64,000 nucleotides of DNA from an uncultured candidate division WWE3 bacterium. Lineage in GTDB: Bacteria; Patescibacteriota; WWE3; UBA101185; UBA10185. Within the stretch, counting starts at the first letter, position 1. Every line of letters starts with the position of its first letter. The DNA is taken from positions 5,389-69,388 of the forward strand of contig CBFDCV010000001.1 in the NCBI GenBank assembly GCA_965603395.1, read 5' to 3'. The notes under the pieces were generated by a model that saw only the letters and a program-made list of their open reading frames with translations, made no database searches and was not told where the DNA came from. A program made the translations under genes and the position numbers. This document shows, piece by piece, positions 7,521 to 64,000 of this stretch.

Positions 7521-7895
7521 GTGTCTAAATTTGTAAATAAGGTACTGGAAATTGTGTACATGATTCCCCAAGGACAGGTAGTTAGTTATGGACAAGTGGC
7601 GCTCATGGCAGGCATTCCTAGGGGTGCTCGATTTGTGGGCGGTGTTTTGCACTTCCGGGGTGAAAACACTCCGTGGTGGAGAGTAATAAATAATGCCGGA
7701 AGAATAAGTACAACGTGCCAGGAACATACAGCCACTATGCAAAAGAAAAGGCTGCTTTCAGAAGGTGTAAGAGTTGATAAAAAGCTAAACATAGATATTG
7801 AAAAGTATCGATGGAGACCTGAACCGGATGTACTGGAAAAACTAGAGCTTAAAGATGATTACATACAAAAGATCATGGAGAAGTATCTGTTTTGA
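7521..7895 (+). CDS. Alkyltransferase-like protein (ATL): MGMT/Ogt DNA-binding domain lacking the acceptor cysteine
   Basis: Ogt-like 'VSYGQVALMAGIPRGARFVGGVLH' and the active-site block 'TPWWRVIN' in place of PCHRV (Cys replaced by Trp, as in YbaZ/Atl1-type ATLs). 124 aa. Confidence 0.55.
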   Translation: MSKFVNKVLEIVYMIPQGQVVSYGQVALMAGIPRGARFVGGVLHFRGENTPWWRVINNAGRISTTCQEHTATMQKKRLLSEGVRVDKKLNIDIEKYRWRPEPDVLEKLELKDDYIQKIMEKYLF

Positions 7896-9084
7896 TCAAC
7901 ACTAACCACAACCAAAATAATAAGCTTGTACATACGGTAGGCCAACCAAAAATGTTGGTGGCATAAAATCCTACTAAGCCTGCCGCTAGAAAAGTATCCT
8001 TGGTTTTAAGCGCCCTTACCATAATTAGAAAATAAATCACCAAAGCTACCACACCGGACTCAACCAATATTTCTAAATAATAATTGTGCGGTTTATTTAA
8101 AATAAAATCCCACTCAGAAGAATAGTTTAAAAAATCCTCTCTGAAAAACGGGAACTGATAAGGAAAGGTCTCCGGACCTGTGCCAAGCAAAAAGTTTTTG
8201 GGGCTTGAAAAGGCCATTCTTATGCTACCCTTCCACAAACCCAGCCTGATCAACCCCGGATCTGACACATTATAGCTTTGCGGATCTGTGCTTAAAGTAA
8301 GTGCGTCTGAAATTCTTTCTTTAAAGAAAGAGATGTTAAAAACGCTAAAAATTATGAAAACAAAAACAGCTAATAATCCCCACCTATTTAATACCTTCCT
8401 CCTAAATTTAATAGTCAAAAACACCAACCCCGCCGCAAGACCTACCAACCCCGATAGTGAATGAGCAAACCACAGGTTAATGAAGGCGATCAAAAAAGTA
8501 GTTGTCCAGAAATACTTTTTCAGATTCTCATCTGCTTTTAAAATTCTGTCTATCAACAAAGGTAGCAAAAACACAAGATAGGCCGCCAACCAGTTGGGCT
8601 GTCCTAATGTCGATGATATTCTATTTTGTTCGAATATCTGAAATATCCCGTAAAGAGAAACCGGAAAAACACTTAAACAAATTAGGTCCTTTAAGGTTTC
8701 CGCCTTTTTGCCATCGATAAAATTAATGCCCACCAAATAAATACCAAAAAATATTAGGAAGGACACCAACCCTCCGTTAAATCTTGAGTAGTAACCCCAA
8801 ACGGAGGTATAAGAATGAGAAGAGAACAGGGTAGATAATGAGATAATTCCCAAATAGAGTAGTATTTCTTTACCGGGAAATACCACTTTTTTTCCTCCAA
8901 ACAAAAGCCTCAACAACAACCAAAGAAACACAATAGTGCTTCCTACAATATAAACAGATGTCATTTTTGGAAATTCGTAGGCCTCGGCAGTGAAATTACT
9001 AAACACTAAAGGTGTAAAAAAGCCCAGAGATAAAAATAGGCCCAAAATAACCTTACTGATAGTAACTTTCAGCTGACTGTTCAT
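7873..9084 (-). CDS. Polytopic membrane protein, O-antigen ligase/Wzy-like family (putative)
   Basis: About 10-12 predicted TM helices over 403 aa with one larger loop. The family assignment is by architecture only. Confidence 0.3.
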   Translation of the reverse strand: MNSQLKVTISKVILGLFLSLGFFTPLVFSNFTAEAYEFPKMTSVYIVGSTIVFLWLLLRLLFGGKKVVFPGKEILLYLGIISLSTLFSSHSYTSVWGYYSRFNGGLVSFLIFFGIYLVGINFIDGKKAETLKDLICLSVFPVSLYGIFQIFEQNRISSTLGQPNWLAAYLVFLLPLLIDRILKADENLKKYFWTTTFLIAFINLWFAHSLSGLVGLAAGLVFLTIKFRRKVLNRWGLLAVFVFIIFSVFNISFFKERISDALTLSTDPQSYNVSDPGLIRLGLWKGSIRMAFSSPKNFLLGTGPETFPYQFPFFREDFLNYSSEWDFILNKPHNYYLEILVESGVVALVIYFLIMVRALKTKDTFLAAGLVGFYATNIFGWPTVCTSLLFWLWLVLIKTDTSP

Positions 9085-9107
9085 GATATTATTATTATAA
9101 CTCGCTA

Positions 9108-9168
9108 TGCTCGTTCTAATAAGCTGGTGATTTCAACCCACTGTGCTCGTTCTAATAAGCTGGTGATT
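9108..9168. repeat. Direct repeat of a 25-bp unit 'TGCTCGTTCTAATAAGCTGGTGATT' (2 copies, period 36) in a divergent promoter region
   Basis: Copies at 9108-9132 and 9144-9168 are identical and followed by T[CA][AT]AACC. The unit is related, in inverse orientation, to the tandem repeat at 63314-63430. Confidence 0.75.
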
Positions 9169-9178
9169 ATAACCTGCC

Positions 9179-9754
9179 ATGATATCTAGAACTCTAGTCA
9201 GACTAATAGACCAGGCCATAGTACCCGCAATACTCCTATTGTGTACTAGATTTGTGTCGGTGGTAATGCTGACTTATCTTTATGGAATTAAGTTTTCCGT
9301 TTCAGCCTCCGGATTTATTTTCAGCAACTCACAAGACTATTTGTTTATAAACTCTTATTCTACCTTGGCTATGATCGTGATCTTGGGATCGGGTCTTTTG
9401 TACATTTTGGTCAAAGCTTTATATTTTCATGATACCCATATCAGCCCTCGTTTAACCACAAAGCTTTTTCATCACAGGCTAGCTACTCTAATTCAAAGCT
9501 CTTTTGAGCTGTACTCACAAGGCGTTATCTGGCTCATCTATTTATACCTGATCAGCGCCGTGTCCATCATACTTGCGGTTTTTGACTACACCTACGGATG
9601 GATTCCCGTAGTGGCAGTTTTTCTGTGCGGAATCTCCACCATAGTTTTGATCATTGATGTAGAAAAAGAGCTGGAAGGCTTAGAGTCCGACTACCACGAA
9701 GAAGAAACTCCCGTAGGCATTCAGTTAGGAAAAAAGTATGGATTACGATCATAA
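9179..9754 (+). CDS. Hypothetical integral membrane protein
   Basis: 191 aa with about 4-5 hydrophobic helices and an acidic C-terminus. No recognisable motif. Confidence 0.35.
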   Translation: MISRTLVRLIDQAIVPAILLLCTRFVSVVMLTYLYGIKFSVSASGFIFSNSQDYLFINSYSTLAMIVILGSGLLYILVKALYFHDTHISPRLTTKLFHHRLATLIQSSFELYSQGVIWLIYLYLISAVSIILAVFDYTYGWIPVVAVFLCGISTIVLIIDVEKELEGLESDYHEEETPVGIQLGKKYGLRS

Positions 9755-12226: not shown

Positions 12227-12895
12227 TTATTCACACAACTTATAACCAAAACCATAAACAGTCTTGATTAGCTTTTTTTCATAGGGACGGTCTACTTTGT
12301 CACGAAGGCTTTTTATATGCACCTCCAACGTGTTGGATACCGTTTCAAAGCCCATTTCCCACACCTGCTCCAATAACCTCTCTTTAGAGACAATTCTCCC
12401 CTTGCTTAGCATTAAACATTCTAATAGTTCAAACTCTTTTCTAGAAAGTACAATGCGCTGACCGCCTCTGACTACTTCTTTTGCATGTAAATCCATTTTC
12501 AGCTCCCCTACGCTAAGCACATTCGAGCCCTTTACACCGTTAGCTTTTTTTATCAAACTTCTCAAATAGGCCACAAGCTCTCTAACCTGAACCGGCTTTG
12601 TTAAAACTGCGTCGGCTCCGCAGTCTAAAGAATCCAGCTTTCTTTCCAGATCATCCTCTTCAAGCAGCACTATGATGGGAATTTCTTGATCATCTTCTCT
12701 GGTAACCTTACACAAATCAGTATTTTCCATATCTCCAAGATCAGCTTCTACTACAATGGCGGCGTAGTCATTAACTTGGGAAAGATAAACACCTTCTTCT
12801 TGGTTATGAGCCACATCTAATAGATAGTGCTTGTTTACTTCTGAGCACATATCGACGGCAGATTCGGCATCATTGTTTACGAACAATACCCTCAT
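12227..12895 (-). CDS. OmpR/PhoB-family response regulator, atypical receiver domain, orphan
   Basis: C-terminal winged helix 'LSRKEFELLECLMLSKGRIVSKERLLEQVWE...TLEVHIKSLRDKV...VYGFGYKL'. A receiver fold is present but the acidic pocket reads 'VNNDAE', the phospho-site appears to be E ('IVVEADLGD') and the conserved T is L. No histidine kinase is adjacent. Confidence 0.65.
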   Translation of the reverse strand: MRVLFVNNDAESAVDMCSEVNKHYLLDVAHNQEEGVYLSQVNDYAAIVVEADLGDMENTDLCKVTREDDQEIPIIVLLEEDDLERKLDSLDCGADAVLTKPVQVRELVAYLRSLIKKANGVKGSNVLSVGELKMDLHAKEVVRGGQRIVLSRKEFELLECLMLSKGRIVSKERLLEQVWEMGFETVSNTLEVHIKSLRDKVDRPYEKKLIKTVYGFGYKLCE

Positions 12896-20398: not shown

Positions 20399-23260
20399 AT
20401 GCCAAATCAGAAGAAATTGCAACTCAACTTGGAGCAAATAAAGGCCGTGGAACACGTTTCCGGACCAATTTTAGTAGTAGCAGGAGCAGGTACAGGTAAG
20501 ACTAGGGTCATTTCGGAACGTATAAAACACCTCATAAATAAAAAAGAAATAAGTTCTAAGGAAATACTAGCTTTAACTTTCACAGAAAAAGCGGCCCAGG
20601 AAATGTCAAATAGAGTGGCTGATGTCATGCCATTGGGATATGAAGAGCCCTGGATCAGTACTTTCCATGCCTTTGCGGATAGAATATTAAAAGCTGAGGG
20701 TTTGGAAATGGGCTTGGACCCGACATTTAAAATATTATCCGGTCCTGATCAGTGGCTTCTTTTTAGAAAAAATCTTTTCCAATTTGATCTGAAATACTTT
20801 AGGCCCTTAGGTAACCCCACAAAATTTATTTCCGCCATACTAAAGTTTGTCTCACGATTGCAGGATGAGTACATTAGTCCCAAAGAACTCGAAGAATTTG
20901 CACAGAACTTTGAAGGGGCGGGTGAAGAAAAAGAGCGGTGGCTTGAGCTAGCTTACATTTATAAAAAGTATGAGGAGATAAAAATAGCTAACTCAAAAAT
21001 GGATTTTGGAAACTTGATCAGCTGGTGTATAAAACTTTTCGATGATAGACCAAATGTACTAAATAAATACTGTGAACAATTCAAGCATGTATTACTGGAT
21101 GAGTTTCAAGACACTAATTACGCACAATATTTACTGATAAAACGTTTGTGCCCTGAGACTATGGGAAAAAGAAGTTTGTTAGTAGTAGGTGATGATTCTC
21201 AGTCTATTTACAAATTCAGGGGTGCTGCCGTTTCAAATATTTTAGAATTCATGAAGGATTACCCAAAGGCGGAAATGATCACTTTAACTAAAAACTACCG
21301 CTCTACACAACAAATTCTAGATCCTGCCTACAAATTAATACAAAATAACAACCCCGACACCTTAGAATCCAAACTTGGCATATCAAAAAAACTAACCACT
21401 ACACAAAAGGAAGAGAGAAGTACTCCTCAAGTATTACAAACAGAAACAATAGAAGATGAGGTTGAGCTTGTCATTTCAAAAATTTACGAAGTCTTAGCTA
21501 AAGAACCCTCCTATACATATAGGGACGTGGCAATACTAGCCAGAGCCAACGGTCACCTAGACGCTTATGTTATGGCCTTGAGAAAATACGGCCTTCCTTA
21601 TCAGCTAGTCGGTAACCGTGGTTTATACGATCAAGATGAGATAAGAGACATCTTAGCGTTACTAAAAGTTATTGTTAATCCCAAAGACTCTATCAGCCTA
21701 TACCGCGCCCTAAACATCGATTCATTTGCCATTCCCCAAAAGATCATAACCGGGCTGCTATCTCAGTCAAAATATAAGAAAACTGACATTTGGGAGCTAA
21801 TTCCTGATTACAAAAATCCTGAACTGGAAAACTTTCACCAATTAATAACCAGGTATCAAGACAAAATTACTAAAGCCCTGCCTGTGCAACTTGTCTATGA
21901 TCTAGTACACGAATCGGGCTATTTAAACATTTACCTGGAAGAAGAGACCATAGAAAATATACTTAGTATTAAAAACCTTGATCTCTTTTTAAACGTGGTT
22001 AAGAAGTTTGAAATTGACTATAGATCAGACAGCAATGAGCTCCCCACACTAGTGAACTTAGTGGACTACATAGAGATGCTTATTGAGGCCGGTGATAGCC
22101 CCGCTCAAGCGGAAATCGAAGACATAGACACTATCAACCTGCTCACTGTGCACTCCGCTAAGGGGCTGGAATTCCCTGTGGTATTTTTAGTCAACTTGGT
22201 CACAGGAAGATTCCCAACCAGAAATCGTAAAGATATGATCCGAATGCCTGACGAATTAGTTAAAGAAACACTACCTACAGGGGATGAGCACCTGCAAGAA
22301 GAGCGAAGGCTGTTTTATGTAGGCATGACAAGAGCAAAAAAATATTTGTACATGGTAATGGCAAAAAACTACGGCGGTGTGAGAGAAAGAAAACCTTGCG
22401 GCTATGTTGAAGAAACCGGTCTTACCTTAGAAGAAGTTCAAGCGGATGAAATTGCCTCCAAGAAAGTAGGCCAAAAGCCTCTTTTCGGGGTTGAGTCAGG
22501 TTTTAAGGATCCCGTTTTGGCAAAACTTGATTTTACACCCAGATTTTTAAGTTATTCTCAAATAGACACTTACAAAATCTGCCCCCTTAGATACAAATAT
22601 AGCTATGTACTCAAAGTCCCTGCTTCGCCCAGCCATAATCTAAGTTTTGGCATAACCATCCACGACACTTTGCGCGATTTTCATTCCAGGCAGATTTTCG
22701 ATGATGTTTCTTTAGACGATTTACTAAAAATGTATGAGAACAATTGGCAGCCTCTAGGGTATATGGATGAAGATCATAGAAATCACAGATTCGAGGATGG
22801 TAAGAAGTTATTAGAAACGTACTATAATAGGCATAAAGACGACAAGAAAAAACCTCTGGAGTTGGAAAAATCGTTTAATTTGAAGATTGGCGGTATAAGA
22901 TTTTACGGCAGAATAGACCGCATAGACAAGCTGGATGGCGGCGTTGAGATCATCGACTATAAAACCGGAAATACCAAAACTCAAAAAGATGTGGACAAGG
23001 ATGACCAGATTGCTTTTTACGCCATTGCTGCCAAAGAAGCGTTAGGTGTGGAACCAAAAAAACTTACCTACTACTTTTTAGAGAGCGGAGAGAGGATTTC
23101 CACAACCAGAACCGACAAGCAATTAGAAAATAAAAAGCAGGAGGCAGGACAGATCGTAGAAGATATTAAAAAAGGAGAGTTTACAGCTAGTCCCGGTATG
23201 CAATGTAGTTGGTGCGATTACAAAGAAATTTGTCCTTTTGCTTACAAAGGAAGTTCCTGA
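20399..23260 (+). CDS. UvrD/PcrA-family SF1 helicase fused to a C-terminal Cas4/AddB-like PD-(D/E)xK nuclease domain with a 4-Cys (Fe-S) cluster
   Basis: Walker A 'AGAGTGKTRV' and UvrD motifs throughout. The C-terminal 'CPLRY...RIDRID...IIDYKTG...CSWCDYKEICPF' gives a C...CxxCx5C cluster plus D/E-K nuclease residues. Confidence 0.8.
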   Translation: MPNQKKLQLNLEQIKAVEHVSGPILVVAGAGTGKTRVISERIKHLINKKEISSKEILALTFTEKAAQEMSNRVADVMPLGYEEPWISTFHAFADRILKAEGLEMGLDPTFKILSGPDQWLLFRKNLFQFDLKYFRPLGNPTKFISAILKFVSRLQDEYISPKELEEFAQNFEGAGEEKERWLELAYIYKKYEEIKIANSKMDFGNLISWCIKLFDDRPNVLNKYCEQFKHVLLDEFQDTNYAQYLLIKRLCPETMGKRSLLVVGDDSQSIYKFRGAAVSNILEFMKDYPKAEMITLTKNYRSTQQILDPAYKLIQNNNPDTLESKLGISKKLTTTQKEERSTPQVLQTETIEDEVELVISKIYEVLAKEPSYTYRDVAILARANGHLDAYVMALRKYGLPYQLVGNRGLYDQDEIRDILALLKVIVNPKDSISLYRALNIDSFAIPQKIITGLLSQSKYKKTDIWELIPDYKNPELENFHQLITRYQDKITKALPVQLVYDLVHESGYLNIYLEEETIENILSIKNLDLFLNVVKKFEIDYRSDSNELPTLVNLVDYIEMLIEAGDSPAQAEIEDIDTINLLTVHSAKGLEFPVVFLVNLVTGRFPTRNRKDMIRMPDELVKETLPTGDEHLQEERRLFYVGMTRAKKYLYMVMAKNYGGVRERKPCGYVEETGLTLEEVQADEIASKKVGQKPLFGVESGFKDPVLAKLDFTPRFLSYSQIDTYKICPLRYKYSYVLKVPASPSHNLSFGITIHDTLRDFHSRQIFDDVSLDDLLKMYENNWQPLGYMDEDHRNHRFEDGKKLLETYYNRHKDDKKKPLELEKSFNLKIGGIRFYGRIDRIDKLDGGVEIIDYKTGNTKTQKDVDKDDQIAFYAIAAKEALGVEPKKLTYYFLESGERISTTRTDKQLENKKQEAGQIVEDIKKGEFTASPGMQCSWCDYKEICPFAYKGSS

Positions 23261-53534: not shown

Positions 53535-53552
53535 ACACCATTGCTTTATCAT

Positions 53553-53561
53553 TGTGGATAA
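53553..53561 (-). promoter_or_regulatory. Perfect DnaA box (TTATCCACA) upstream of dnaA
   Basis: Plus strand TGTGGATAA is the reverse complement of the consensus DnaA box. Confidence 0.5.
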
Positions 53562-53623
53562 CTTATGTTAAATTACTTCTGCCTCGTACTAAACCTGTCT
53601 TATTTCTGCCTTCATTTTTTAGC

Positions 53624-55015
53624 ATGAATAAAAGAAAAAAAGCTGTCAAATCACAAGAGGATACTAATCAGTTTTGGAAGAAGGTTCTAGGAATTCTACA
53701 AACTGAGTTAAACCCATCCATTTTTAATACATGGGTAACGGGCGTCACGCCTGAAAACCTCACCGACACCTCAATAGAACTAGTGGTTCCTATGGATTAC
53801 AGTGCAAAACAGCTACAAAAATATACTTCTCTTATTCAAGATTCCATAGAACGGGTGGGAGGAGGGCCGTACAAAATACAATTTGTAGTAAAAAAAACAA
53901 CTGAAAAAATTGAGGTTGATGACCTAGGACCTTTGTTCGAACCGAAAAAGGAAACTAAAATTAGTAAGGCGGTTATCACCAAGGCAGGACTCAATCCCAA
54001 ATTCACATTCGAAAATTTCATCATGGGAAACAGTAATCAACTGGCGTACGCCATAGCTCAATCTGTGGCAGAGAACCCGGGAAAAAGCTATAATCCCTTC
54101 TTTTTGTATTCCGGTGTGGGTATGGGAAAAACTCACCTCATGCAAGCTATAGGAAATAGAATATTACAAAATGATCCGAAAACAACTGCGGTATATACAA
54201 CCGGCGAGAGTTTCATGAACGAGCTCATTGAATCTATACAAAGTGGCAAGGGAAGAGGACGTTACACATCAAACGAATTTAGAAATAAGTTTAGAAAAAC
54301 AGATGTTTTATTGATCGATGATATCCAAGAAATTGTGGGAAAAGAAGCCACACAAGCTGAGTTCTTTCATACTTTTAATAGCCTATACATGGCCGGTAAA
54401 CAGATTGTTCTTACGTCCGATAGACCCCCCAAAGATTTTACTAATTTAGAAAAACGCATAACGTCAAGATTTGGGAGCGGCATCATCGCTGATATACAAC
54501 ACCCTGAAACAGATTTGAGAGTGGCCATACTAAGAACCAAAAGAGACCAAAATGATGACGATATCTCTAACGAAGTGGTAGACTACATCGCTGAAAAAGT
54601 AACTTCTAATATTAGGGAACTTGAAGGAGCTTATTTACAGGTGCTGACTACCGCCAAGGCAAAGGGCAAGAACCCCACACCTGAGTTAGCAGAAGGAGTA
54701 TTGGGAAAAACCGTTACTCTAAAAAGAAAGAAATCTCTAACCTTAAGTCAGATACTAAGCACTGTTTGCAAATACTACTCACTAAAAACTACTGATCTTA
54801 AAGGAAAAAGAAGAACCAAGAACATTGTTATTCCCAGACAGGTAGCCATGTATTTGATGAGGGAGCTTACCGAAGAGCCTCTTATGAATATTGGAAAGTT
54901 TTTGGGTGGTAGAGACCACACCACCATCATGCATGGCATCGATAAGATCCGAGCCGAGATTAAGGACATGGGTAGGATCAGACAGGATGTTAACAATGTT
55001 AAAGAGATGCTTTAG
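53624..55015 (+). CDS. dnaA: Chromosomal replication initiator DnaA
   Basis: AAA+ 'FLYSGVGMGKTHLMQAIGN', 'LLIDDIQ', and domain IV 'IPRQVAMYLMRELT...IGKFLGGRDHTTIMHGIDKI'. Start taken at 'MNKRKK'. Confidence 0.92.
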   Translation: MNKRKKAVKSQEDTNQFWKKVLGILQTELNPSIFNTWVTGVTPENLTDTSIELVVPMDYSAKQLQKYTSLIQDSIERVGGGPYKIQFVVKKTTEKIEVDDLGPLFEPKKETKISKAVITKAGLNPKFTFENFIMGNSNQLAYAIAQSVAENPGKSYNPFFLYSGVGMGKTHLMQAIGNRILQNDPKTTAVYTTGESFMNELIESIQSGKGRGRYTSNEFRNKFRKTDVLLIDDIQEIVGKEATQAEFFHTFNSLYMAGKQIVLTSDRPPKDFTNLEKRITSRFGSGIIADIQHPETDLRVAILRTKRDQNDDDISNEVVDYIAEKVTSNIRELEGAYLQVLTTAKAKGKNPTPELAEGVLGKTVTLKRKKSLTLSQILSTVCKYYSLKTTDLKGKRRTKNIVIPRQVAMYLMRELTEEPLMNIGKFLGGRDHTTIMHGIDKIRAEIKDMGRIRQDVNNVKEML

Positions 55016-60996: not shown

Positions 60997-61581
60997 TTGA
61001 AATGTGGAAAACTTGTATATATGTCGAGCCTCCCTTATGTTCAATCGTACAAGAAGCTAAAAGTCTTTTTTGAGGCTGTAAAAATTGCAGAAACCCCTTC
61101 CAAATTTACGTATAGGTACTTTGCAGGACTTGGTTTCCCTAGTTCTAAAGATAGGGACTTTGTTATAGCTCTAAAACAGCTGGGATTTATTGATGCCAAA
61201 GGGCAACCCACAGAGGATTACGCTAGTCTAAAGGATGTCAGGCAGTTTGAGGGTACTGTGAAGAGGGGAATAGAGAGAGCATATTTAAACCTGCTTGAGC
61301 TGGACGGAAATGCAGTAGATGTGTCAGAAAATGTGCTAAACGGTTATTTTGGAAGGTTAACAGGAGAGTCGTTAGAAAAAGTAATGGTTTATGCCAGGAC
61401 ATTTAAAGAGTTGGTTGGTTTAGCCGGTTGGGACACAGAAGAAGAGCAGGAAGTTGAAAGTAGAAAGAACGTTGAAAGGGATAGGTCAAACATAAACTTA
61501 AGTATTAATTTACCAACTACAACGGATGAAAAGGTGTACGAGACCTTATTTAAGCACTTAAAAGACTTAGTAACTCCTTGA
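60997..61581 (+). CDS. Hypothetical protein
   Basis: 194 aa with no recognisable motif. Start may be at 'MSSLPY' (61019). It overlaps the proS 3' end convergently. Confidence 0.3.
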   Translation: MKCGKLVYMSSLPYVQSYKKLKVFFEAVKIAETPSKFTYRYFAGLGFPSSKDRDFVIALKQLGFIDAKGQPTEDYASLKDVRQFEGTVKRGIERAYLNLLELDGNAVDVSENVLNGYFGRLTGESLEKVMVYARTFKELVGLAGWDTEEEQEVESRKNVERDRSNINLSINLPTTTDEKVYETLFKHLKDLVTP

Positions 61582-63244
61582 TGGTTATAGTTTTACTGTC
61601 TTTTTCATTGCGTTTTTTAACTTCCGCCTTATCACCGGTTTTTTTGGATACCACAACTCTGTAGGGACAGCCTATTAGATCGGCATCAGCAAACTTTTCT
61701 CCGGCCATAATGTCTTCCCGGTCATCGAACAAAACCTCTACGTTGTTCTTTAGTAGCTTTTTATAGAGATCATGGGCTTTTTTGTGGGTGCTTTTATCTT
61801 CCAGGTTGATACCAACCAGGTGTACTTTAAAAGGAGCCACGCTTTCCGGCCAGATAATACCGTTATCATCGTGGTGGGTTTCTACCACGGTGGCCACGGA
61901 TCTGCCTAAACCTATGCCGTAAGAGCCCATCCAAATAGGTTTATCTGACCCGTCATTATCAGTGAAGTTACCTTTGTGAGGTTCGGAATAGAAAGTATCC
62001 AGTTTAAAACAATGCCCCCATTCAATACCTTTGATTTTTTTCAACTTACCCTTACCGCACTTTACGCAGACATCATCCTCTTTGACTTCCCGGATATCTA
62101 CAAATTCAGGTGTTTTAAAGTCTCTTTCATAGTTTAGGTTATATAAGTGCAGGCCTGATTTATTTCCACCGGCTTCAAAGTTGGTTCTATCTTGGCAGGT
62201 AATATCAGCCACGATCAAAACGCTGTCAGGAAGACCCACAGGGCCAACAAAACCTACCTTAGCCCCGGTCAGATCACTAATTTCCTTTTCTGTGGCTAGC
62301 TCTAACGACTCAGTGCCAAGATGCCTTTTCAACTTAGTTTCATTAATGTCGTAATCGCCTCTAACCATGGCTGCCACAAACTTACCGTCAGCCTTAAACA
62401 TGATGGTTTTGGTGGTGGTGTAGATGGGAACACCCATTCGTTCAGCTAAAATCTCACAATTAACCACGGTATCATCCCAAAACTCTTTGACTTCCTTCAC
62501 GTCCTTGTCTTGAGGATGAGTTTCATAACCGCCTTCAGCACGTTCAACTTGAGAGGCGTAACTGCAGCCCTCACAAGATAAAGCTTCAGCCTCACCTGTC
62601 TCAGAAAGAACAATAAACTCATGATTGTAATCCCCACCTATAGCACCGCTTTCAGCCAACACAGGATAAGCTTTAAGATCAAGCCTTTGGGCAATCTTCA
62701 AATATGAGTCATAAAACTTCTGGTACGAATCATAAGAAGCTTCCTCTGATCTATCAAAGGAGTACGCATCTTTCATGGTAAATTCCCTGACCCTGAGAAT
62801 TCCACCGCGTGGTCGTTTTTCGTCCCTAAATTTATTGGTAAATTGATGTACGTAAAAAGGTAATTCCTTGTAAGAAGGGGCAAACATTTTTACCAACTCT
62901 ATCATTACGCCTTCGGCAGTTGCCCCCATGGCAAAAGTAGCCCCGTGGTGATCGTCAACAATGTGCATTTCGTCACCAAAAGCAGCATCTCGGTTAGTTA
63001 CTTTCCAAATCTCGATAGGCTGTAAAATAGGGGTATTCAAGCGCTGACTGCCTACAGCTTCCATTTCTTCGTCCACAATATTCATAATTTTCTGCCAAAC
63101 CCTAAAACCTAAAGGTAAAAAGGCATACCTGCCGGCGGAAACTTGCCTGACAAAGCCTCCCTGGTATAAAAATCTATGACTAGGTGTTTTGTAGTTACCG
63201 GGGACAGTTTTTATTGTTTTTCCAAATAAATTCGAATATTTCAT
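61550..63244 (-). CDS. proS: Proline--tRNA ligase (bacterial type with editing insertion)
   Basis: 'MKYSNLFGKTIKTVP...SHRFLYQGGFVRQVSAGRYAFLPLG' and class II motifs. 564 aa. Confidence 0.9.
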   Translation of the reverse strand: MKYSNLFGKTIKTVPGNYKTPSHRFLYQGGFVRQVSAGRYAFLPLGFRVWQKIMNIVDEEMEAVGSQRLNTPILQPIEIWKVTNRDAAFGDEMHIVDDHHGATFAMGATAEGVMIELVKMFAPSYKELPFYVHQFTNKFRDEKRPRGGILRVREFTMKDAYSFDRSEEASYDSYQKFYDSYLKIAQRLDLKAYPVLAESGAIGGDYNHEFIVLSETGEAEALSCEGCSYASQVERAEGGYETHPQDKDVKEVKEFWDDTVVNCEILAERMGVPIYTTTKTIMFKADGKFVAAMVRGDYDINETKLKRHLGTESLELATEKEISDLTGAKVGFVGPVGLPDSVLIVADITCQDRTNFEAGGNKSGLHLYNLNYERDFKTPEFVDIREVKEDDVCVKCGKGKLKKIKGIEWGHCFKLDTFYSEPHKGNFTDNDGSDKPIWMGSYGIGLGRSVATVVETHHDDNGIIWPESVAPFKVHLVGINLEDKSTHKKAHDLYKKLLKNNVEVLFDDREDIMAGEKFADADLIGCPYRVVVSKKTGDKAEVKKRNEKDSKTITIKELLSLLSA

Positions 63245-63313
63245 AATACTAATAATGTATACCTTCTAATCCTTGTTGTTGTCAAGCAAAAAGCTATAAT
63301 CACTTGTTTATTA

Positions 63314-63430
63314 GAACGAGCAAAGTGAGCTACTTTGTATTCAAAGCAACGAGCAAAGTGAGCTACTTTGTATTCAAAGCAACGAGCAAAGTGAGCTACT
63401 TTGTATTCAAAGCAACGAGCAAAGTGAGTT
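63314..63430. repeat. Tandem repeat: 33-bp unit 'CAACGAGCAAAGTGAGCTACTTTGTATTCAAAG' in 3.5 copies, each containing the palindrome CAAAGT-N5-ACTTTG. It sits in the proS/valS divergent promoter region.
   Basis: Exact copies at 63347, 63380 and partial at 63413; a variant first copy at 63314. A -10-like TATAAT at 63430-63435 follows immediately, 9 nt before the valS ATG. Confidence 0.85.
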
Positions 63431-63444
63431 ATAATGAGCAGGTA

Positions 63445-64000
63445 ATGGAAATGCCCCAGATGCCAAAAAAGTATAATCATCAGGAATCGGAGCCCGAAAT
63501 CTATAAATATTGGGAGGAGTTAGGTGTGTTTGCACCCGAAAAAGCAGCTGAAGAAAGGAAAAAACACGGTTATCAGGTGAAAGATGAAACTTTTTGCGTA
63601 TTGATGCCTCCGCCAAATGCTAATGCGCCCCTACATTTGGGGCATGCCACTTATAACATTCAGGACCTGATCACCAGATTTAAGAGAATGCAGGGATACC
63701 AATCTTTGTATGTGCCCGGTACGGATCACGCAGGTTTTGAAACACAGGTGGTTTATGAGAAGGGTTTGAGAGACGAGGATAAAAGTCGGTTTGATTTTGA
63801 CGCCAAGACATTATTCGAAAACATACTTGCCTTTGTGAAAGAAAACTCTGATCTGGCTGTTGATCAGCTGAAAAAACTGGGCATGAGCGCAGATTGGAAT
63901 AGGAATACCTTCATGCTGGAAGACAAAGTACTTGATTTGGTGCTAAACACCTTTAAGAAGATGAATGATGACGGACTTATTTACAGGGATGTTTATTTGG
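63445..64000 (+). CDS. valS: Valine--tRNA ligase, 5' part (continues beyond the window)
   Basis: 'LMPPPNANAPLHLGHA' HIGH region and 'VPGTDHAGFETQ'. Confidence 0.85.
   Translation, partial: MEMPQMPKKYNHQESEPEIYKYWEELGVFAPEKAAEERKKHGYQVKDETFCVLMPPPNANAPLHLGHATYNIQDLITRFKRMQGYQSLYVPGTDHAGFETQVVYEKGLRDEDKSRFDFDAKTLFENILAFVKENSDLAVDQLKKLGMSADWNRNTFMLEDKVLDLVLNTFKKMNDDGLIYRDVYL

Follow-up and report, generated by a model that had tools for sequence, protein, structure and literature searches.

Tandem repeats of variable assembled copy number at the -10 box of valS and at least two other leaderless-layout genes in a clade of Patescibacteria

The genomes of Patescibacteria are tiny, and their intergenic regions span a few dozen bases; we know of almost no mobile DNA in this group, and to our knowledge their promoters are essentially unstudied. 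A perfect tandem array immediately upstream of valS in an uncultured candidate division WWE3 bacterium therefore raises the question of what such a repeat is and how it came to lie there. The array is part of the window analysed here, a stretch of 64,000 nucleotides (64 kb). The original prediction took its palindrome-bearing 33-bp units for a multi-operator array controlling valS and/or proS or, as an alternative, for a genome-specific repeat element.

The tandem 33-bp units described next to valS are real. TRF places 3.5 copies of period 33 with 100% matches at 63315-63428 (score 228), the strongest tandem repeat of the 64-kb window by far, since the remaining ones score no more than 55, and a separate repeat search reproduces the same register. 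The units stand head-to-tail with a period equal to the unit length and no spacers between them, so a CRISPR array is rejected, in agreement with the original prediction. The statements that proS (61550-63244, minus strand) diverges from valS and that the array ends at a TATAAT 9 nt before the valS ATG hold as well. The four units originally seen are present, but a diverged fifth unit and a second TATAAT lie just upstream of the coordinates originally given; with these two elements, the complete proS-valS structure becomes TATAAT-B-A-A-A-TATAAT, 9 nt and ATG. Starting from the proS side, a TTGACA on the minus strand at 63280-63285, outside the array, resembles a -35 hexamer and may belong to the divergent proS promoter; it is kept (as TGTCAA) in L003, L004, L005, L007 and L013. 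The upstream TATAAT (63295-63300, plus strand) represents the second copy of the ancestral valS -10 box, located beyond the insertion as seen from valS, with its flank changed from TG to GC; array-free relatives carry a single ...GCAAAAATGTATAATGAGCAGGTAATG. It is followed by the B-type unit CACTTGTTTATTAGAACGAGCAAAGTGAGC (63301-63330, plus strand; nhmmer E=1.8e-8, and alignment), which is 83% identical to the B units of a second locus, described below, over 36 nt including the leading TATAAT (30/36). Three A-type units on the plus strand, all recovered by TRF, complete the array. The first, TACTTTGTATTCAAAGCAACGAGCAAAGTGAGC, also recovered by the repeat search and nhmmer, occupies 63331-63363; the second (63364-63396) is identical to it and is the unit missing from the otherwise identical contig L001; the third (63397-63429) ends in GAGT, not GAGC. 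The TTCAAA of this third unit sits 18 nt upstream of the proximal TATAAT (63430-63435, plus strand), an arrangement that scores 10/12 matches in a simple promoter scan, and the proximal TATAAT is followed by the 9-nt GAGCAGGTA and the valS ATG at 63445 (together 63436-63447). Two reading frames touch the array: a TTG-initiated frame (63304-64000) joins it to valS, and a spurious 79-aa ORF covers it on the opposite strand (63241-63480, minus).

The promoter layout at valS recurs elsewhere in the window. Eight genes have a TATAAT or TACAAT 6-9 nt ahead of the start codon, with starts at 20399, 30158, 40017, 42529, 49192, 59900, 9084 (minus strand) and, for valS, 63445. A TATAAT shortly before the start codon is a published signature of leaderless transcription in bacteria (PMC6028130), which suggests that leaderless mRNAs are common in this genome. 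On the basis of sequence, the TATAAT-9 nt-ATG geometry predicts that the valS mRNA is leaderless or has a leader of 2-3 nt. The proximal-promoter string TATAATGAGCAGGTAATGG is identical in seven sequences (the window, L003, L004, L005, L011, L013 and L016), including lineages whose ProS is only 79% identical to that of the window, and because of this identity the proximal TATAAT is presumed to be the working valS -10 box. The named homologues of ProS and of the Wzy_C-family protein discussed below come from Patescibacteria, Microgenomates or WWE3. As to the wider setting, Pfam identifies dnaA at 53552-55015, and the cumulative GC skew has its minimum near 36-40 kb.

We obtained the proS-valS regions of relatives through exact-protein look-ups. 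Contig L003 matches the window at 99-100% identity over 58.4-61 kb but lacks the array and carries an uninterrupted ancestral GCAAAAATGTATAATGAGCAGG. This array-free allele is real rather than collapsed: the array allele contains none of its TGTATAAT junction k-mers. The valS array is likewise missing from L004, L005/6, L007-10 and L013-15, and in L003, L004, L005/6 and L013-15 the sequence ...GTCAAGCAAAAATGTATAATGAGCAGGTAATG... lies within an intergenic region of 65-75 nt that has one TATAAT. Contig L001, in turn, is 100% identical to the window over 5.4 kb except for having one 33-nt unit fewer (2.5 copies). Arrays are also present in L011 (3.5 copies) and L016 (1.5 copies), from a species ~82% identical in DNA and 91% identical in ProS; a G-to-A change is common to two of the L011 units. 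In L016, a G-variant unit joins GAGT-TATAAT directly, so this allele is real, and the copy-number difference between L016 and L011 is backed by unique junction k-mers. The array thus has units longer than 10 nt and a copy number that differs between close strains, as a VNTR or minisatellite does. Assembled copy number does differ (1.5, 2.5 and 3.5 copies), but the more exact values of 1.45, 2.45 and 3.45 equal the de Bruijn resolvable maxima at k=21-33, 55-77 and 99, respectively, so the difference between the window and L001 may be an assembly collapse. Two public contigs end at or inside the valS array (L002 at its position 1 and L012 at its position 1, the latter inside the array), and the repeat therefore breaks short-read assemblies. 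Scanning genome and metagenome contig collections for the 20-mer GCAAAGTGAGCTACTTTGTA gave no further arrays, although the metagenome scan is not exhaustive, as it missed the JGI contig L011, which has the 20-mer; a degenerate 18-mer scan gave no further arrays of this period, and phage and plasmid collections contained no match.

The valS units belong to a family of 30-36 nt A and B units with the shared core AACGAGCAAAGTGAGYTA. Using blastn-short, a 3-mismatch search and an nhmmer profile (real matches at E<1e-3, noise at E>8), we found family units only at valS, at window positions 9085-9171 and upstream of tsaD in species C; the documented loci are only three because the search covered 64 kb of this genome and short pieces of relatives. 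The unit is therefore not confined to valS, and the alternative of a genome-specific repeat element turned out to be essentially right, with homologous units at a second locus of the window and a third in a sister species. At the second locus (9085-9171, minus strand), the arrangement is TATAAT-B-TGAAAT-B-TATAAT-AATAATATC-ATG, with two 36-nt B units between TATAAT boxes and a distance of 9 nt to the ATG; this ATG starts a Wzy_C-family gene (7873-9084) that shares its divergent intergenic region with the gene for a 191-aa membrane protein (9179-9754, ATG at 9179). Unit number and type at this locus differ in every relative examined: the window has two B units, species B has one, species C has B+A or B+2A, and in another sample of the window species the first unit has diverged. 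The empty site is seen in the outgroup L136/137 (65% protein identity) as CAT-AGGCAGG-TTATAAT-AATAATAAC-ATG. For tsaD, the empty site is a single TATAAT-ACCCTC-GTG in the window and L003, with ACCCAC in L004 and ACCCTA in L005. Species C has instead one to three 34-nt units at this position, each with its own TATATT, ending in GAGTTATAAT-ACCCTC-GTG (L013 6358-6478; L014 5264-5395; L015 3883-3948); the upstream boundary of these arrays is a partial unit, not TATAAT. The L014 array runs straight into tsaD at about codon 21; the gene is consequently called with 310 aa versus 337, and this junction is either a real deletion allele or a misassembly. One public gene call (P0125; L135 182-1489) runs through the 36-nt array of the Wzy_C locus and gives 435 aa versus 403 (+32 residues).

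The inserts at valS and at the Wzy_C locus have TATAAT on both sides, the outgroups have a single TATAAT at all three loci, and the orientation of the units toward the downstream gene is identical at all three. In this Patescibacteria clade, at least three leaderless-layout genes have family units precisely at their -10 box, namely valS, the Wzy_C-family gene and tsaD. Ancestrally, a single TATAAT precedes the start by 6-9 nt; the derived state is TATAAT-unit(s)-TATAAT with the downstream box and its spacing unchanged. Across unit variants, the conserved feature is a direct pair of hexamers, AACGAG-N3-ARYGAG, adjoining the -10 box. The sequence inserted at the Wzy_C locus is unlike the local ancestral sequence, and the best local alignment of the unit with the ancestral valS promoter is not significant (p ~0.09-0.10 against random windows or shuffles), so the inserted DNA probably came from elsewhere. 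The putative end repeats of the units, as read from the sequences, are imperfect and 5-7 nt long (CACTTG...CAAAGTG; ACTAGC...GCGAGT). No transposase, integrase or regulator was found beside the array among the 50 window ORFs scanned with Pfam, which are ordinary housekeeping genes.

Taking these comparisons together, we read the valS array as a hypervariable, probably mobile, promoter-embedded minisatellite, in which the valS promoter would consist of the gene-nearest unit and its TATAAT, with the other units as passengers. To this reading, which makes the array a lineage-restricted, copy-number-variable expansion of the 33-nt A unit from a promoter-embedded family, we assign a probability of roughly 0.55. 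DNA from elsewhere would have entered the -10 hexamer or a position beside it and restored the hexamer, and we infer that insertion is tolerated before essential genes because of this regeneration. Units would then have been gained and lost through slipped-strand mispairing or unequal recombination (the instability of tandem repeats has been reviewed; PMC3899988), and short-tract homologous recombination would have carried the valS allele from one species to another as a haplotype of ~170-190 nt. Transcription of valS would start from the proximal TATAAT (63430-63435), with the last A unit supplying the upstream half of the promoter (TTCAAA, 18 nt, TATAAT), and the remaining units would at most tune promoter strength or separate valS from the proS promoter.

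The proposed movement between species draws on the contrast between the insert and its surroundings. Only 2 differences separate the window from L011 in the 129-nt insert (98.4% identical), as against 82.5% identity overall; at the flank divergence of 17.8%, the probability of two or fewer differences in 129 nt is 4e-9. Moreover, the flanks in the window change to an L003-like haplotype within ~30 nt on either side of the insert, and linked T-to-C and TG-to-GC changes go with the array in both species. This pattern fits the transfer of a haplotype of ~170-190 nt via short-tract recombination, and purifying selection is not needed for the 98% identity because the flanks switch haplotype within ~30 nt. 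The high identity of the units across species could instead reflect strong selection on every unit, which would favor a functional binding array. Elsewhere in the region, the identity of L003 to the window drops to 74-88% in patches (61200-61800 and 62400-62900) inside DUF5343 and proS, and these mosaic patches indicate short-tract recombination between co-occurring populations.

The core of the species C tsaD units, AACGAACAAAGTGAGTTA, has a much wider distribution, as the exact 18-mer also lies between genes in unrelated bacteria and archaea. Scanning genome and metagenome collections with AACGARCAAAGTGAGYTA gave 114 loci in unrelated taxa; the 18-mer loci are L017-L130 and L138, with L020, L031, L033, L044, L048, L064, L097 and L115 as examples. 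The single variant AACGAACAAAGTGAGTTA makes up 77/119 matches. It falls in long open frames in 12% of cases, compared to 67% of random positions in the same loci, and is directly flanked by inverted repeats of at least 8 bp in 20/74 cases, compared to 0.4% of random windows. In these hairpins, the 18-mer is at the tip (stem-TAACGAACAAAGTGAGTTA-stem), and the stems differ from locus to locus and are often A-tract/T-tract. Hairpin cases represent ~9 independent lineages, counted as distinct flanking contexts, which include Bdellovibrionota, Lachnospiraceae and Woesearchaeota. The dominance of one variant, the intergenic bias, the inverted-repeat flanks and the number of independent lineages mean that the 114 scan loci are not noise. 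No Rfam family matches the 18-mer, and no paper with the sequence was found in literature text. Its complementarity or similarity to E. coli 16S, 23S and 5S rRNAs and tRNAs is no better than that of shuffles (30% reach the observed score), and no shared neighbor gene was found among the 18-mer loci. Several individual loci have features of their own. An IS200-like Y1 transposase gene lies beside the 18-mer in L097 and has its own, different flanking AATCGGAGGCTCGGCCTCCGATT hairpins; in the same contig (3290-4200), a CIRCE-like operator (TGGCACTC-N9-GAGTGCCA) upstream of hrcA is directly beside the 18-mer hairpin. L079 (66% GC) and L098 have short tandem repeats of the 18-mer's 3' end just after the motif, (TGAGTTA)x4 and GGTGAGTTA x2, respectively, as if this end were prone to reiteration. 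The wide occurrence of the 18-mer makes it less likely that the core of the units is arbitrary. We regard as a tentative possibility that the 18-nt core is a portable module with its own function, and that the arrays derive from an unrecognized, extremely small (30-36 nt) mobile element or from the recognition site of a widespread factor. Such an element would insert into -10 boxes here and into hairpin tips elsewhere, rebuilding the interrupted promoter.

Two alternatives assign the repeats to a DNA-binding protein. According to the original prediction, a dimeric helix-turn-helix regulator would recognize the palindrome CAAAGT-N5-ACTTTG and control valS and/or proS. The 17-nt palindrome CAAAGTGAGCTACTTTG is indeed exact three times (starts at 63321, 63354 and 63387) with a regular 33-bp spacing beside two promoters, its chance expectation is 0.30, and 0/100 shuffles reach 3 copies; in addition, two species with 82% identity have nearly the same array sequence. 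The palindrome is weak, however, and arises because the 18-nt core of the A unit is flanked by the short inverted repeat CAAAG/CTTTG. It is found nowhere else in the 64-kb window at 3 or fewer mismatches and is absent from the related arrays at the Wzy_C locus and tsaD, whose folding does not exceed that of shuffles; what the family conserves is not this palindrome. Nor is helical phasing, which had been proposed for the 33-bp units, a family property, given that 33 bp corresponds to 3.14 turns and that the related arrays have periods of 34 and 36 bp. A near-identical strain and all more distant relatives have the same essential genes without the array, in a compact region of 65-75 nt, and no regulator gene is adjacent, the only transcription factors found in the window being an OmpR-type response regulator (12.2 kb; 12227-12895) and HrcA (42.5 kb). 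The comparative data thus largely refute a multi-operator array for valS or proS, which we consider very unlikely, and the original interpretation as a whole is partly supported. The main rival to the minisatellite is a binding array for the conserved core, in which an activator or repressor shared by valS, tsaD and the Wzy_C-family gene would recognize the direct half-sites AACGAG-N3-ARYGAG at the -10 box; a winged-helix response regulator that binds head-to-tail would be an example, with extra units as added sites. Both hexamers are preserved across all unit variants, whereas the intervening 3 nt are variable (CAA, CAT, CAC, TCT, TGC, TGA), and single core-like copies lie on the tsaD -10 box without arrays in L007 (GAACGAAGTGAGATATAAT) and species B (CAGTGAGTTATAAT). 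A similar copy occurs in L102, an AT-rich metagenomic contig with ...AACGAGAGAAACGAGTTATAAT-9 nt-ATG before a yebC-like ORF (named from its N-terminal translation only), and the gene for an OmpR-family regulator lies ~3 kb away from the Wzy_C locus, a proximity also seen in the outgroup L136. Relatives nevertheless run valS and the Wzy_C gene without any core, the known loci number three (for 64 kb of genome and short relative pieces searched), and the half-site spacing of 9 nt is below the 10-11 nt usual for the winged-helix response regulator family. We therefore judge this explanation to be unlikely, although less so than control through the palindrome.

The remaining alternatives place the array in RNA, in protein or in mere replication error. 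If transcription started at the upstream TATAAT (63295-63300), the array could be a structured valS 5' leader or a small RNA, with CTTTG-tatt-CAAAG and CAAAGT-gagct-ACTTTG as competing hairpins and a loop presenting each 18-nt core. The 144-nt valS region does fold better than shuffles (z = -2.85). Moreover, the A-unit core lies between CAAAG and CTTTG much as the identical 18-mer lies between inverted repeats in unrelated genomes, and the orientation of the units to the downstream gene is the same at three loci. These hairpins are weak, though (-3 to -4 kcal/mol as DNA), and the B-type, 34-nt and 36-nt arrays show no structure (z = +1.4 at tsaD and 0.0 at the Wzy_C locus against shuffles). 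No terminator-like site was found, and the conserved TATAAT-9 nt-ATG argues for a leaderless mRNA from the proximal promoter. An Rfam scan returned nothing at gathering score, T-box included, with SNORD29 and a group I intron as the only hits at E<=1, both chance-level and far below gathering; a T-box, a riboswitch or another known RNA is rejected on this basis, and we consider an RNA element in general to be quite improbable. REP/BIME elements with a RAYT were also rejected, given hairpins of only -3 to -4 kcal/mol, a palindrome without other copies in the window and no Y1_Tnp domain in the scanned ORFs. Purely local slippage would make the array a VNTR born from the valS promoter itself, with no related copies and no function. 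Perfectly identical units, variable assembled copy number and a weak likeness of the unit to the ancestral promoter (TTGT..TC-AAGCAA) are compatible with such an origin, but the likeness is not significant (p ~0.09), and the homologous units at two other loci, where the ancestral sequences are unrelated to the unit, contradict it; it is highly improbable. A coding repeat is hardly credible. It would extend the N-terminus of ValS by 11-residue repeats (SKVSYFVFKAT), in frame from TTG 63304. The 33-nt period equals 11 codons, the frame is open and continuous with valS, and one gene caller did read the Wzy_C gene through the 36-nt array (P0125, 435 versus 403 aa). Against this, ValS of the relatives has no residues ahead of its conserved MEMPQMPKKY start, the unit is in any case open in two of its three forward frames, the only available start is a TTG 3 nt after a TATAAT, and the sister array cannot be coding because of its 34-nt period.

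The promoter-embedded minisatellite, our preferred reading, has consequences beyond this locus. A repeat family can occupy the -10 box of essential genes with the leaderless geometry intact and a copy number that changes between near-identical strains, and its valS array would cross species boundaries as a haplotype of less than 200 nt. If confirmed, the family offers a natural means of studying the construction, duplication and exchange of promoters in Patescibacteria. It also carries a warning for annotation, as gene callers read through the arrays and assemblers break or collapse there. Should the 18-mer at the hairpin tips of different phyla have a single cause, it would point to an undescribed widespread element.

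Among the closest known systems are dispersed minisatellite or VNTR loci of the MIRU type. MIRU minisatellites of Mycobacterium tuberculosis lie between genes inside operons and carry small overlapping ORFs. The family described here shares with them spacer-less head-to-tail units of tens of nt, related units at several intergenic loci (here three, all in one orientation), a fixed orientation to the flanking genes and a copy number that differs between close strains. It differs in that its units are 30-36 nt long, lie inside promoters and are bounded by duplicated -10 boxes, at three loci so far. Correia elements of Neisseria are ~100-150 bp long, with 26-bp terminal inverted repeats and hundreds of dispersed single copies. 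Like these and other promoter-carrying MITEs, the present family has the look of a short non-autonomous insertion: a TA-containing target is duplicated, the insertion lands beside genes and supplies or restores promoter elements, and empty and filled sites coexist among strains. The target-site duplication (TATAAT on both sides at valS and the Wzy_C locus) and the empty sites in relatives are those expected of a MITE. The units are, however, 30-36 nt long and tandem, their end repeats are imperfect and 5-7 nt long, no transposase was found in 50 window ORFs, and dispersal amounts to two loci within the 64 kb searched. Arrays of ToxI, the RNA of type III toxin-antitoxin systems, consist of 36-nt repeats with a ToxN-type endoribonuclease gene downstream. 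The likeness lies in spacer-less tandem units of ~34-36 nt that immediately precede a gene and share its orientation. In the present family, by contrast, the arrays are followed by valS, tsaD and a Wzy_C-family gene rather than by a ToxN/AbiQ-type toxin gene, and no terminator stands between array and gene, so that such an RNA array is rejected.

Putative mobile promoters have been defined as at least 50 nt at 80% identity or more upstream of non-homologous CDSs (Matus-Garcia et al. 2012; PMC3488235). Homologous sequence directly upstream of non-homologous genes, varying between close strains, is also what we observe, but the best inter-locus match is 30/36 nt (20 nt at 95% by blastn-short), which is too short for assignment to this class, and neither tandem amplification nor -10 duplication is among the features of that class. 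Finally, phase-variable promoter repeats such as the TAAA of nadA, the TA of hifA/B and the poly-G of porA have units of 1-4 nt that alter the -35/-10 or operator spacing (PMC3899988). As in those promoters, repeat number changes here in a promoter region shared by divergent genes. In contrast to them, what changes at valS is the number of whole 33-nt units upstream of an intact -10 box, with the core geometry constant, and the genes concerned include essential housekeeping genes.
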